Part shown: in pieces, positions 9,602 through 61,091 of the stretch | How the letters are laid out: every line of letters starts with the position of its first letter | Position numbering within the stretch: position 1 is the first letter of the stretch | Assembly (NCBI GenBank): GCA_964016885.1 | Contig: OZ024750.1 | Location: 7,688,001-7,752,000 of the forward strand | From: Eledone cirrhosa | Taxonomy: Eukaryota | Length of the DNA: 64,000 nt | Direction of reading: 5' to 3' | Translations under genes and position numbers: made by a program | Notes under the pieces: model-generated | Seen by the model: the letters and a program-made list of their open reading frames with translations, nothing else | Databases searched by the model: none | What the model was told of the DNA's origin: nothing

Positions 9602-9781
9602 GGTTTTGAAGAACTAATTAGTTCTTTGTTAACTTCGGTGAGGAGATTCTTTAAAGATTCCTGGTTAACTTTCCTGGAGAACTTTCTCGTATTCGTCGGT
9701 GGCGATTGTCAAAGTTAACCAGGAATCTTTAAAAAATCTCCCCACAAAAGTTAACAAAGAACTTACTAGATCTACAAAACC
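9602..9781. repeat. Imperfect fold-back (~70-bp arms) with degenerate hammerhead-like core
   Basis: 9602-9672 is the reverse complement of 9711-9781 with several mismatches. Loop plus right arm reads CTGGAGA...CAAA-GTTAAC-CA-GGAA. Confidence 0.8.
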
Positions 9782-9922
9782 AAATTGTAAAGTTATAATA
9801 TAAAATTGAAGTGTTTAGAACTAAAATTGAAGTCATTCTGTTCTTTTTTTCAAATATACCTACCTGTACCAAGGATTTCACAATTTTTGCAATATATATA
9901 TATATATATATATATATATAAG

Positions 9923-10048
9923 TTTATCCCGGGTTCAATCGGGAGTAACCACAGTAAGTAAGGTACTCAATACAAAGTAGAGTATAAATATTTAATATTG
10001 ATGATTTCTCCCGAATGAAACTGTTCTAGTCCTGTAGAAGCCTTTCTA
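9923..10048 (+). mobile_element. Hammerhead-bearing element, family B (inverted tail + core)
   Basis: TGATGA-TTTC..GAAT-GAAACTGTTCTAGTC, preceded by the reverse complement of the family tail. Homologous to 15425-15560 and 52981-53160; flanked by (TA)n. Confidence 0.7.
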
Positions 10049-11530
10049 AATTATATATATATATATCTGTGTGTGTGTATGTCTGTGTGTGTGTGAATAA
10101 AAATTGATATCGGAAATTACACATCAGTGTCTTCTGCCTGGAGAACAAATAGTTCTGTCTATGTTCATTTATTTAATGTTTTCAATTGATTTAATGAATC
10201 GTTTGACTAACATCGTTAGCTGACCCTGGGGTGATTTTACAGGAGTTCACTCTTCTGTTGTAAACATCCTGATCAGTTCTCCGTTTTAGAGATAACCTCT
10301 CTAACCATTTAAGGAGACTCTGGAAAGGTCAGGGCACTCTTCTTCCTCTCTACCCCGCAAAAAACGAAACTTATATTTAATAAACATTTCCTCTGTAATA
10401 GAAACAAACAGCTTAATAACACTAGGGAATACGGAAAATAATTTTGGTTTCCCAAGAACGAAAATAATCGATTATTATAGGATGTTATTGCTAAATTTAA
10501 ATAAATTTATAGTATCTATTAGATAAGAATTTATTATGACAAACAATTTAATTATTAACAATCAATATATTTGCAAATTTTTAAAGCTACAGTCGGAAAA
10601 ACGTAGCTCTACTTTAGAAAGTAACTTGCATTGATTTTCTACTGTTTTTTTTTATCTCAGATATGTTTCCTTTAGGAATCCAACAAGAACAGTGAGCAAG
10701 AAAATTAAGAATGTAATTGCCTTGGTACGTTTTTCCATAGTTGGAACATCATGTCGAAAAAGCTCACTATATATTTTATAGCAATTGCTACAGACCAGTG
10801 GTGAAGTTCACCGCTTTTAAAACCCACAGCGAGTCTATAAAGCTGTTTATTAACGTATAAGATTCAGCATGAAAGGGAAGTACCCAATGTTGACTGGTCT
10901 ATGTTTGATAGCGATGGGATTACTATATACACACACATTGTCATGTGTATATATCTATATGCATGGTATGTGTTTCATTGCTTTTCTAGCAATTGCTAAT
11001 ATAGGGTGGAACAATTGATATACATGCAACATTGCTACAATAGAATGTCCTTGTAAGTATGTATGTTAGTTTTTTTCTATGTGTATATTCGTACGTGTGT
11101 ATGTATGCAACATGTATGTATGTATCTATTTTAATTTATTGTTTCTAAAATAATTGCTTCTAAGCAGGCAATTAGTTTAGAGTTTAAAGATTGAGAACAG
11201 CAAATATGGGGCCTAGTTTTAATGATTGCGCTAATTTGCTGTCATTTATAATATATAGCCTTCTGACAATGTCTGTTTTTCTTAATCCTTATGGTAAATC
11301 TAATTAATCTATCTACATATAATTACAGATAGGAAATTGACAGGGATAAATCGGCAGAAGTGCGAATGCAGAGTGGGGAATAGAATATATTTCTCGATCC
11401 TCAATATTACTGAATTGCCTTGTTGTTTAGAGACCTGCCAGCTCTTATCTGTATACCTATGATCAAGTGTATATCACATACGAGGATTCTGCCTGAAGTA
11501 TTCTTTTTCTACGACTTTATGATTGAAATA

Positions 11531-11941
11531 GGATTGGCAGTATCGGTAGAGGGTCGGACGCCATGCTTTGAAGCATAGAGTTACCTCCCTGTATGATCTG
11601 AATTCGAATCCCGCCGAGGTTAACTTTGCCTTTCATCCTTACGGAGTCGATAAAATAAAGTACCAGTAATGCACTGGGATAATTGCTGGCCTTGTGCCAA
11701 AAGTAGAAACAATTATGATTGAAATAAAGGTACTACAATATTCAATTATTGGGCGGTGGATTGGCAGTATCGGTAGAGCGTCGGACGCCATGCTGTGAAG
11801 CATAGGTACGACCTTTGCCATTCTGAGTTCAAATTTCGCTGAGGTTAACTTTGCCTTTCATCCTTACGGGGTCAATAAAATAAAGTACCAGTAATGTACT
11901 GGGTAATTGCTGGCCTTGTACCAAAAGTAAAACCAATTATT
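11531..11941 (+). mobile_element. Two tandem tRNA-derived SINEs
   Basis: Two full A-box/B-box/body/tail units head to tail. Confidence 0.92.
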
Positions 11942-14099
11942 GTGATCGATGTTAGAATTCATTAATGTTTTCTCCTTATTACGACGCGGATACTGATGGA
12001 AGACTCGTTAGAGAGGCAGACGAAATGTCTCGTGTTTTTTATTTGACCCCTTTATTATGGGTTCAAGTTTTGTGATCGACGGTGGATTTAATTCTCAAGG
12101 GCTCTAATTATATCGACTATTAGACCCCTTCCCATGAATAATTCCACATTCCTTGTCAATACAAAATGAAAGTATACATTATTTCTTTTTAATTCTTTCC
12201 ATAAAATTATTTTTTTTTATACGAGTGGGGTTTCATTCCATATGGGAGAAAATCCGACAAATCCTCTCTAAGGCATTTTTACTAATTGCTGAGGTGGGTA
12301 AAGTCTGGTACTCATTATATCTCTTCTTCGCCAACACCAGTAACACCAAGATGACCAAAAGGGATTTCAACATAAACAGAAACCATATATATTCCTGCTA
12401 GTGTTGGAAATATTGCAGACTTTGATCGATGAGAGAAAGCTTGTATAGCTTTAAATAGAGCCATACATTCTGAAAACTGTCGGCAATATTATGAAATATT
12501 TCCCTTCAATGATATTCATCACTGAAAAGGGATCGCTTTATAAATATTTGTTTAATTACTGCCAAGGCTGACTATAAAACGATCTCTATAAATGTGAATT
12601 TGTACTCAATGTAAAGAATAATTACTATAAAATATTTGAAAGCTGGAGAATGGAAGTAAACTATAGTTTAATATATATTGTCTTGGCGACTGCATTTTAC
12701 TTCACTAATACCAACTTTATCTATGTATAAAAAAAATCCGCTCTGCAATAAATTCAACAAGTTAATGTTTAAATAAGTAATCCATTGTGATTATGTGTGT
12801 AGTGTGGATGGTAAGTGGTGAAGCTTCTTATCAATTAATTCAGGTTATGGTTCAGTTTCAATTTCAAGTTTTATCCATTTAACTTACTTTCCATTCTAAA
12901 TATATTTATCTTAGGCAACGATTTGGCAGATTTGTTAGAATGTCGGATAGAATGGTTTGCTGTATTCTTTTCGACTCTCTGCTCCATGCAAAGTCAATAA
13001 AAATGTACCAGTCAAATACTGGTATCGATTCTTCCTTTATTCTCCTTTCTTACTTCCTTTCTCCCACTCTCCCTCCTTCTCTGGAAAAAATCTGATGTAT
13101 TCAGACCTGGAGAGGATTGGACACTGGCAGAATGTGCATTGTGTTATTTGGTTTTAACGATTAGGTTGTGATTTATAGGTATATAGATCGTATAGAAACT
13201 TTGTTAGGACATCATGTCGTCTGGACTAAATGTCTTACGTTATACAAGTTCAATTTACCATTATGAAATATAATGGATTGGAAGAATCGTTAGGGCGTCG
13301 TTACTTGTAGTATCTATCCCGACTCTTTTACGTCTAGAGTTCAGATCCCAGAGTAATCAATTTTGTTAGATGGAAAATGATTGGAAGTCGTCAGATAAAT
13401 TATACTCATAATTAAATGGTCAGTATTGTCAAACATTACATCACCCTGAATATTAATGAGAGCTATACTAAGGATTCACGTGTCTGTGGAATTCTCAGCC
13501 ACTTAGGGATGTTATATTTAGGTAAAGGCTGTTCTGTTGATAAAAAAAACTGACACATCTTTGAAATCGATAGAACTACAACCGTCTAAATTTAACGATT
13601 CCTCGACGTCGACCCCACAAAATAAGGCAATGAAATTCCTTTACGTTTTTAAAAATATTTCGTTAGCAGTATATATGTCTCATACGAATTACTTTATAGC
13701 TTCGTGCTATATATACTTTTATACTTCTTAAGAGATCATTAATATATCTTACACATTATTACTTATAAATTATTTTTGACACCTTAGTAGAAGTATTAAT
13801 GTATGTTTTCACTATTAATGTAAATTTGTTTTTAAAATGTATTTTCTTCTTCTACTTCAATTAATTACTTGAATGGCGACTTTCCAAGCGTTTTTAAAAA
13901 ATATATCTTTTTAATATATCTTTTTAAAATTCGTGATCAAATCTATTGATAATGGCACTTGTACAATTCAATAAAATGAAGTGTATCAAAGAGAAATTCC
14001 TTCATGCGTGTTTTGTCATCGGCAATATACTATGGATACAGCTACATACCTTAACTCATGCTGGCTGTGTTTATATATACATACATACATACATACATA

Positions 14100-59781: not shown

Positions 59782-59950
59782 CAAGGCCGTGGTAACAACA
59801 TTATAGCCCCCCCCCCCCCCGGGGCAAAGCAGAGTACTGGGGCCTCTACCTACACAACCACTCACAGGAATAAAAATACAACTGGGCTCCCCTATCCTCG
59901 TGGGGCCCCTGGGCAACTGCCCAGCGTGCCCATGCGCTAAGATGGCCCTG
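59782..59950. mobile_element. hAT-like MITE with 8-bp target-site duplication
   Basis: Termini CAAGGCCGT.../...ATGGCCCTG; TATATATG at 59774-59781 and 59951-59958 (TSD lies in low-complexity DNA); GC-rich body. Confidence 0.7.
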
Positions 59951-60293
59951 TATATATGCATATATATATATGTATATATGCATATATATATATATATATA
60001 TATATATATATATATGCATATATATATATATATTATTCAGTTGATGAAAGTTGGTTGAACATATATAATCCACCGAATTTTTTTGTAAACAGACGTAAAT
60101 CACTGTACGATTTATTTATATATATATATACATATATATATATATATATATATATATATATATGTATATGTAGGAGGTGAGTTTTATTGTAGTACAATAA
60201 AGCAATGCAGATATCGGATAAGAAGCACTCTACAGTTTGTAGGACTGGAGTATACATAATATAAGATCAAAAGATGGTTAAAGGAGTTCCATG

Positions 60294-60364
60294 TATTTTA
60301 TTATGCGCATTTCAAAAACAAACATCATCATGCAATAATATTTGTGTTTTCATCAGATAAAACA
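60294..60364 (-). ncRNA. Type-I hammerhead ribozyme (minus-strand mirror copy)
   Basis: Exact reverse complement of 60484-60554. Confidence 0.75.
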
Positions 60365-60483
60365 GGAGAACATGATATGAAGGCTAAAAGACACTTGTGG
60401 ATAGTGCAGTTTTAAATCAACATGCAGTTGATTTAAAACTGCACTATCCACAAGTGTCTTTTAGCCTTCATATCATGTTCTCC

Positions 60484-60554
60484 TGTTTTATCTGATGAAA
60501 ACACAAATATTATTGCATGATGATGTTTGTTTTTGAAATGCGCATAATAAAATA
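60484..60554 (+). ncRNA. Type-I hammerhead ribozyme
   Basis: Stem I TGTTTTAT/ATAAAATA; CTGATGA 60492-60498; stem II AAA(C)ACAAATAT/ATGTTTGT(T)TTT; GAAA 60535-60538; palindromic stem III ATGCGCAT; AUA site with cleavage after 60546. Confidence 0.8.
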
Positions 60555-61091
60555 CATGGAACTCCTTTAACCATCTTTTGATCTTATATTATATATATAT
60601 ATATATATATAGTAAAAAATTGAACGGGAACAAAACAGAGAGGCAGTACGAACAAAGGTTTATTAGTTTCACGCTCTTGAGAGTGGGGTATATATATATA
60701 TGAATATATGTATGGCTGAATGAATAAATGAATGCATATATGTATGTACTTATGTTGTATATAGCTAGGCTTGTGGGTAGTCATGTAGAAAAAGCTGAAT
60801 GAAAACAATTGGTTACTATATAATAATATAAACGTAAAAGCTGGCGGCAGATTCGTATAATAAAGTGAATAAATATAATTTATCAGGAAATGTAATTGGA
60901 TTTACTTTAAAGTACCTTCATTAAAGATGAGTAATGCTTAGCGAAGAAATGTGATAGTTTTCTAATTGATCGTAATTCTCGATATCCCACGTCAGTCTGG
61001 CGTGAGAGAGCTTACCGATACAACTCTCTAAACACTTCATATTGACTTCATTTAAAGTGTGCAGCATCTACAGGTGTTACGCAAGCTAAGT

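Follow-up and report, generated by a model that had tools for sequence, protein, structure and literature searches.

The 64,000-nt stretch of Eledone cirrhosa DNA analyzed here (contig OZ024750.1, positions 7,688,001 to 7,752,000 of the forward strand; G000:C10:7688001-7752000 in our numbering; genome size 3.0 Gb), referred to as the window, is rich in (TA)n and carries a dense population of short fold-back insertions with parts of hammerhead ribozymes. Judged by their sequence relationships, these stubs are 5'-truncated pseudo-long terminal repeat (pLTR) ends of endonuclease-bearing Penelope-like elements (PLEs) inserted in (TA)n, and not a self-contained non-autonomous class, since six of their eight families join PLE reading frames in longer copies. 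A sequence-only reading of the window had listed ten fold-backs, and all have been found by self-BLAST, in the sequence and by family mapping, with arms 75-99% complementary; the one at 52981 was merged into a longer simple-repeat match in self-BLAST and is plain by the other two approaches. It had also listed five junctions of an inverted tail with a core: those at 9923, 14724, 29635 and 50840 map tail and core to opposite strands, whereas that at 56910 is visible but falls below the alignment threshold.

The insertions belong to eight families, labelled F9, F14, F29, F34, F49, F53, F56 and F60 after the kilobase position of each query. Alignment of nine reference ends to the window yielded 16 events: head-to-head pairs account for 13 and solo copies for 2, and the remaining one, at 50910-51026, only looks like a tail-to-tail pair, two adjacent insertions being joined there. 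In the following list a tailed arm is one that runs on into an additional 3' stretch, the tail.

9597-9892: F9 fold-back; left arm 9597-9713 (- strand) with a U3-A8 hammerhead-like core and a doubtful stem I, right arm 9711-9892 (+) tailed
9924-10053: F53 pair; tail-only arm 9924-10004 (-) and tail-less core arm 9999-10053 (+)
14101-14405: F14 fold-back, parent presumably of Neptune type; tailed arm 14101-14254 (-), tail-less arm 14259-14405 (+) with a U3-A8 core and a stem III palindrome with one change
14756-14850: F34 pair of a diverged subfamily; partial tail (-) and hammerhead 3' half (+)
15411-15558 (+): tailed F53 copy, scored as solo
29027-29134: F34 fold-back without a ribozyme part; tail sequence is present in both arms, against the rule of one tail per pair
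29634-29720: F34 pair; distal tail piece 29634-29665 (-) and tail-less 3'-half arm 29662-29720 (+), with no overlap on the element
29777-29996: F29 fold-back; tail-less arm 29777-29858 (-) with a mutated core, tailed arm 29856-29996 (+)
29861-29898 (+): complete minimal type-I hammerhead motif of F29, with palindromic stem III and GUU triplet
33898-34029: decayed F56 fold-back; only 3' halves remain, and the apex holds (TA)n
34596-34807: F34 fold-back; tail-less arm 34596-34658 (-), tailed arm 34669-34807 (+); both begin within stem II, so that the 5' core is absent
35755-35937 (+): tailed solo F14 copy, diverged (76%), absent from the sequence-only reading
49434-49870: F49 fold-back; arm 49434-49730 (-) with a 169-nt tail, tail-less arm 49731-49870 (+); 3' halves only
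50836-50945: F34 pair; diverged 3'-half arm 50836-50883 (-) and tail piece 50910-50945 (+)
50993-51026 (-): short tail-less F34 arm
52979-53161: F53 fold-back; tail-less arm 52979-53032 (-), tailed arm 53030-53161 (+)
53031-53081 (+): complete type-I hammerhead motif of F53, with 6-bp stem I and an extended stem III whose loop contains a CUAG palindrome
56454-56794: F56 fold-back; tailed arm 56454-56705 (-), tail-less arm 56702-56794 (+) with the 3' half only
56590-56681 (-): complete hammerhead motif of F56, with a 61-nt domain II
60170-60597: F60 fold-back, the youngest (99-100% to its family), with a Hydra-type PLE parent; arm 60170-60423 (-) with an 89-nt tail, tail-less arm 60427-60597 (+)
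60296-60362 (-): complete minimal type-I hammerhead motif of F60
60486-60552 (+): complete minimal type-I hammerhead motif of F60

At 16 events in 64 kb the density is one per 4 kb, close to the earlier estimate of one per 3-4 kb. An evenly spaced 400-kb sample of the genome, which is small and not random, contained 52 events (27 head-to-head), between 0 and 6 in each 10 kb, which together span 8,268 bp or about 2% of the sample; the window is about twice as dense and still within the spread of the sample. Extrapolation gives about 390,000 insertions of the eight families in the genome. Stubs of different families are often neighbours in one (TA)n tract (loci L031, L032, L093, L100 and L156), an arrangement suggesting that every insertion provides new targets for those that follow. 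The solo F53 copy at 15411-15558 is bracketed by a 51-bp inverted repeat (15343-15393 and 15574-15624) and is possibly a nested insertion. Placement of sequencing data yielded 0 raw reads from a 1% sample of set X21, 3294 contigs from X1 and 2 from X4, with no read or contig crossing the fold-back.

The eight window queries retrieved 215 to 1629 genome candidates each, of which 40 per query were scored, and 24-30 loci were taken per family. The counts of architecture draw on the family loci, the window itself and 40 sampled regions, with loci fetched after the mapping step excluded; removal of duplicates and of events at most 250 nt from a locus edge left 430 events. Fold-backs with an apex beyond the reference end were counted as solo, and events not picked by any family query are called unselected. 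The 430 events comprise 197 head-to-head pairs, 225 solo copies, 5 tandem and 3 tail-to-tail arrangements, so the single polarity claimed for the window, to which 13 of its 16 events conform, holds throughout the genomic set.

Arm lengths and apices differ between copies. The arm ends are bimodal in all eight families: a proximal site, P, lies 15-157 nt behind the ribozyme cleavage site and a distal one, D, 36-169 nt further, so that the two stand one tail-length apart, both at short TA-like sequences of the element. Over all loci examined, (TA)n was found at 248 of 278 outer ends at D (tailed) and 202 of 231 at P (tail-less), in agreement with the observation made in the window that outer 3' ends usually abut (TA)n. 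Among pairs with both ends classed, 131 combine a D arm with a P arm (DP), 3 are PP and 1 is DD; the corresponding numbers for unselected events are 43, 0 and 0. When any tail sequence is counted, exactly one arm is tailed in 93 of 99 unselected pairs and in 185 of all 197. The tailed arm lies on the left in 63 and on the right in 68 of the DP pairs. Of the 131 DP pairs, 37 have a P arm that extends over 15 nt further 5' than the D arm (13 of them without overlap), and 11 have a D arm that extends further. At the junctions of these pairs the arms overlap in 64 cases, abut in 16 and are separated by extra letters in 51. Arms of a pair share subfamily variants, and divergence within pairs is lower than divergence to other copies in seven of the eight families (1.3% versus 4.5% in F60).

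In F60, F53, F29 and F34a, P is followed after 4-12 nt by a hairpin of the form RCTC-N11-17-GAGY-RC, and full-length F60 has a similar one after D; the references of F49, F56, F14, F9 and F34b gave no match to it. Its approximate positions in the tails of the window are 53107-53130, 29937-29958, 34735-34760 and 60214-60243.

Six of the eight families extend upstream, in longer copies, into PLE reverse transcriptase (RT) or endonuclease frames, five of Hydra type and one presumably of Neptune type. The sequence-only reading had reported no RT or GIY-YIG open reading frame (ORF) in the window, and none was found there; its attribution of the stubs to PLE pLTRs with minimal type-I hammerheads targeting (TA)n proved right, the joined frames of these six families lying elsewhere in the genome. 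In F60 an endonuclease-like frame lies about 500-700 nt upstream (eight rows of loci), and at locus L095 a single ORF upstream of the F60 hammerhead encodes an RT (YRDD) followed by a C-terminal GIY-YIG-like domain, with an inverted truncated copy present. The frame carries the Hydra motifs DKT, RWT (K to T), CNCRIKNKC (CxCx5C), CNLC (CxxC) and CLH (CxH), and its N-terminus resembles Hydra-1_Obim in a by-eye comparison. Pfam gave no RT or GIY-YIG match on the F60 frames, and 34 homologues retrieved were without names; among their Atlas neighbours RVT_1 and GIY-YIG occur on 21-49% of members. In full-length F60 copies the pLTR and tail continue into the 5' untranslated region (UTR) and the ORF, and site D is thus internal to the element.

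Parents of F34, F49 and F53 have been seen from the endonuclease end only: the frame is joined in several of 25 long copies of F34, F49 joins a frame similar to that of F60, and F53 joins one at a single locus, 2.9 kb away across a microsatellite-rich UTR. F29 likewise joins a frame similar to that of F60 in six rows, with the CxCx5C linker present. The F14 frame, from one locus (L236), is frameshifted and was read by eye; its Neptune-type label, for which a CxxC-type linker and a CCHH-type endonuclease would be expected, is our assumption, drawn from the clade description in PMC8557442. No reading frame was seen upstream of F9 and F56 in the loci taken, and no search was aimed at their parents. 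The most fitting reading of the stubs is that autonomous elements produced them as dead ends.

F60 is a young family, its full-length copies being 99-100% alike at the ORF start (best 40 of 509 candidates), which suits a simple in vitro test. Five near-identical F60 elements with a unit of about 3,657 bp form a tandem array at G000:C6:38066000-38092000 (L294-L296), and two translated units of this array share a frameshift.

The hammerhead descriptor demanded the core, stem I (at least 3 pairs), stem II and stem III together; a stricter earlier one misses long stems and U3-A8 cores. The three-stem descriptor found five complete motifs in the window (29865+, 53037+, 56675-, 60356- and 60492+), where 40 shuffles gave 0.15 on average and never more than 1. 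In the 400-kb sample it found 39 (15 of them in one tandem array), where five shuffles gave 0-2. As these counts are far above those of the shuffles, the motifs are real. The hammerhead core that the families were said to share is thus present, but not in the form or to the extent described: only 4 of the 10 window fold-backs hold a complete motif, many arms carry the 3' half only (both arms at 33891, 34596 and 49604), the fold-back at 29022 has no ribozyme part, and three families (F14, F9 and F34) have a U3-A8 core in place of CUGANGA, as seen in the fold-backs at 14162 and 9602. Rfam returned no hammerhead or other ribozyme among the matches listed (150 of 245 for the window scan) and labelled the stubs as microRNA-like.

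Longer copies gave a hammerhead layout for all eight families, which also ruled out F34 as a non-hammerhead family, and the full layout lies in the pLTR of F60, F53, F49, F56, F29 and F34. The F60 ribozyme is a minimal motif with a palindromic stem III; that of F53 has an extended stem III and a U.U pair closing stem II; F29 shares the closing U.U and has a GUU triplet; F49 has A9 changed to U and an 82-nt domain II, and domain II measures 55-82 nt in F34, F56 and F49. Stem I of F9 is doubtful. Stem III or its loop is palindromic in seven of the eight families. Non-majority letters make up 85 of 3278 in the core and 2666 of 47437 in the rest, with polymorphic sites at 1 of 88 and 85 of 1549 positions, a contrast favoured by queries that themselves contain parts of the core. 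Stem covariation was likewise found: stem I of F53 shows two-sided changes at pair 4 (A-U in 51 and C-G in 6 of 66) and pair 6 (G-C in 6).

Each fold-back strand has at most one sense ribozyme, and many arms have no 5' core. The stubs are unlikely to act as ribozymes, since the read-through RNA of the F60 fold-back at 60.2 kb is predicted to form a single long hairpin hiding the ribozyme (-281 kcal/mol). It is a matter of speculation that long double-stranded RNA from stubs could feed silencing or editing. Palindromes flanked by GAAA and UH halves also occur outside the eight families, at 44842 (+), 49153 (-), 54850 (-), 15126 (-) and 24762 (-), and may represent further families.

The 5' ends of the arms lie within 4 nt of the position 30 nt downstream of a TATA motif (TATA+30) in 23 of 58 unselected F14 arms and in 24 of 62 unselected F53 arms; some of the ends counted for F53 may instead be alignment edges of diverged subfamilies. 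F60 ends cluster at one site (11 of 32), which is also a 6-nt palindrome, and F34 ends at one site within stem II (44 of 141); three full-length F60 copies start at -123 to -128. The cleavage site is the starting point of no more than 5 of 325 unselected arms, so that cleaved RNA does not usually serve as template.

We propose, with a probability of about 0.6, that the fold-backs arise by double priming: the enzyme of the element would cleave a TA run on both strands and reverse-transcribe a single RNA two times, starting from two fixed sites within it. One target end would prime at P and the other at D of the same uncleaved RNA. Both complementary DNAs (cDNAs) would run toward the 5' end of the RNA. 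In any overlap the cDNA behind would displace the one ahead, and the two 3' ends would be joined head-to-head through microhomology or repair. The large number and small size of the stubs would follow if, in every mRNA, P and D came directly after the transcription start within the 5' pLTR; priming there would copy only 50-300 nt and leave dead ends. Passages of the in vitro study of an anole PLE (Frangieh et al., PMC11167929) describe cutting and extension of both strands, reverse transcription from two internal sites bounding the tail, and a preference for uncleaved RNA, ribozyme cleavage being unneeded. The genomic pairs extend this in two ways, as every insertion makes a single use of either site and its arms are not nested.

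The broader claim that PLEs integrate by obligate asymmetric double priming, with the two (TA)n cut ends starting at two fixed sites of one uncleaved RNA and hundreds of thousands of genomic stubs recording the 5' pLTR reaction, stands in our estimate at even odds. If it were true, the stubs would map start sites and transcript starts for each family, and a single step would account for the one-sided tail as well as for the inverted copy and the shared polarity; double priming would then replace antisense self-priming as the default model.

Several observations weigh against copying of one RNA from two sites. The one-tail rule is broken in 12 of 197 pairs. The copy closest to an arm is its partner in only 50 of 155 pairs, and within-pair similarity shows no excess in F29. 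The fit to TATA+30 is weak or fails in F9 (6 of 40) and F49 (2 of 43), F60 has no TATA at -30, F34 has only a poor TATA-like motif, and for F53 the alignment edges mentioned above have to be considered. The F14 and F53 links to a parent each rest on one locus, and F9 and F56 are without one. The proposed mechanism is, moreover, read from the genomic sequence of these families, in which one RNA copied twice looks the same as two RNAs of one locus.

Double priming on two RNAs, one per subunit of a protein dimer and possibly held by the palindromic stem III, would account for overlapping arms without strand displacement, and the PLE protein is indeed predicted to be a dimer in part of PMC11167929. 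The palindromes of seven families speak for it as well, as does a recurrent difference between arms at F60 position -89, found in 9 of 21 pairs and on either arm. We nevertheless regard this as unlikely: free RNAs would yield DD and PP pairs unless the dimer were asymmetric, the strict counts being 131 DP, 3 PP and 1 DD, and multi-site haplotypes of F60 are common to both arms. A second recurrent difference, at F29 position -21, is a CpG site selected by the query and was discarded as a two-template signal, being explained by CpG decay and query bias. Less probable still is self-priming, in which the first cDNA, or an antisense RNA as for Adineta Penelope, would fold back and copy itself, the second arm ending at P. 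It has been put forward for head-to-head palindromes in sections of PMC3846280; the 64 overlapping junctions (by short palindrome or microhomology) suit it, and the near-equal 5' ends of 83 of the 131 pairs (at most 15 nt apart) fit self-copying as well as they fit double priming. However, a self-copy must lie within its template, and a tailed arm cannot derive from a tail-less one. In 37 of the 131 pairs the tail-less arm reaches further 5', and so holds sequence absent from the tailed arm; in these pairs it cannot be a copy of its partner. Self-priming is thereby refuted as the only route and may still apply to some symmetric pairs.

The sequence-only reading had taken the stubs for non-autonomous retrozyme-like units mobilised in trans, which would be transcribed, self-cleave and circularise. 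Their hammerhead motifs are real, with a core better conserved than the rest, F9 and F56 have so far no linked frame, and the genome does contain a true tandem hammerhead array of another family (L273). This explanation is very improbable for the stubs, given the autonomous parents of six families, the tandem pairs at 5 of 430 events, the single sense ribozyme at most per strand with its frequent lack of a 5' core, the rarity of arms starting at the cleavage site and the single hairpin predicted for read-through RNA. The palindromic shape and TA-rich flanks could also suggest miniature inverted-repeat transposable elements (MITEs) of a terminal-inverted-repeat DNA transposon, or assembly artefacts, an option to which we attach next to no weight. 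The ends differ by the tail, apices vary, and neither matching termini nor a fixed length is found; the arms have diverged from each other; and the joining of families to RT-encoding frames refutes it. Target duplications are unreadable inside (TA)n, and outside it no convincing one was seen, a flank 6-mer or more being shared in 6 of 131 pairs, mostly as simple repeats.

Double priming from P and D recalls the twin priming of LINE-1, which leaves two segments with 3' ends pointing outward to the target. The same layout is seen in the 13 non-overlapping pairs; unlike in LINE-1, each arm starts at a fixed, internal site, overlap between the two arms is usual, and the arrangement is the common and not a minority outcome. 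No paper with a one-tail-per-pair rule, double priming or twin priming for PLEs was found in our literature search, and older papers on PLE structure outside that search may discuss it.

The kind of element is already known. Hydra-clade PLEs with a C-terminal endonuclease, among them Hydra-1_Obim of Octopus bimaculoides, carry a hammerhead and target (TA)n according to passages of Craig et al. (2021, PMC8557442), and recently active Penelope families are reported from Octopus vulgaris in parts of PMC13282606. The order of RT and GIY-YIG, the motifs DKT, RW., CxxC and CxH and the CxCx5C linker, as read in F60, are common to that clade and to the elements described here, and so are the pLTR hammerhead and the (TA)n insertion, whereas the hammerhead listed for Hydra-1_Obim differs from those of all eight families, which are hence other families, and F14 is taken as Neptune-type, not Hydra. 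The families are read as new within a known clade and give a quantitative handle on mechanism. Inverted 5'-truncated copies with a one-sided tail have been described for PLE insertion units (PMC8557442, legend to Fig. 2; Adineta Penelope in sections of PMC3846280). The head-to-head inverted copy, the junction palindrome and the tail at one end are common to those units and ours; there, tails measure 30-40 nt and are optional, whereas here they measure 36-169 nt and are near-obligate on exactly one arm, and most units consist of the pLTR only. The span data obtained here argue against the self-priming model of Adineta as the only route. In a passage of PMC8557442 the mechanism of inverted and tailed insertion is named as open, and to this question the stubs bring countable constraints: one tail per pair, non-nested arms, the same source and an uncleaved template.

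Minimal type-I hammerheads of metazoan PLEs, including a U3-A8 variant and mostly from truncated copies, have been described by Cervera and de la Pena (2014), who in the sections consulted also note dual hammerheads 100-700 bp apart on opposite strands in Schistosoma (PMC4209133). Type-I topology, palindromic stem III, U3-A8, truncated copies and opposite-strand pairs are common to both sets; the motifs predicted here differ in the 55-82 nt domain II of F34, F56 and F49, in U.U for the G-C pair closing stem II (F53, F29) and in A9 to U (F49). Non-LTR retrozymes are presented, in excerpts of bioRxiv 10.64898/2026.07.22.740005, as tandem PLE derivatives with at least two sense ribozymes. They have in common with the stubs a non-coding nature and a type-I hammerhead of likely PLE origin, but are arranged head-to-tail, in contrast to the inverted pairs with at most one ribozyme per strand seen here. 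The array at L273:1-10000 (G000:C28:110000001-110010000), with a head-to-tail unit of about 422 bp and 15 complete hammerhead motifs in 10 kb, is a true non-LTR retrozyme-like satellite of another family, with motif copies dispersed in L237 and L257. In annotation, stubs of the eight families are liable to be mistaken for MITEs or microRNA hairpins.

The window also contains an uninterrupted coiled-coil-like frame of 508 codons at 1961-3487 (-), for which no Pfam family scored above the cut-off and which has generic coiled-coil neighbours only in the Atlas, with a low recognition score. A dispersed repeat of about 190 bp, presumably SINE-like (short interspersed nuclear element), is present in more than 15 copies (496-873, 7751-7942, 11517-11944, 23940-24173, 26184-26418, 31848-31976, 38315-38508, 47682-48183, 50135-50426, 54298-54707, 56987-57327 and 59160-59346). 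Two inverted copies of a 578-bp repeat, 94% identical and 28 kb apart (18260-18837 and 46505-47078), lie beside microsatellites, and similar sequence occurs in L094. A 4.9-kb compound TA/TG microsatellite occupies 18722-23647, with long stretches of the + strand free of C.

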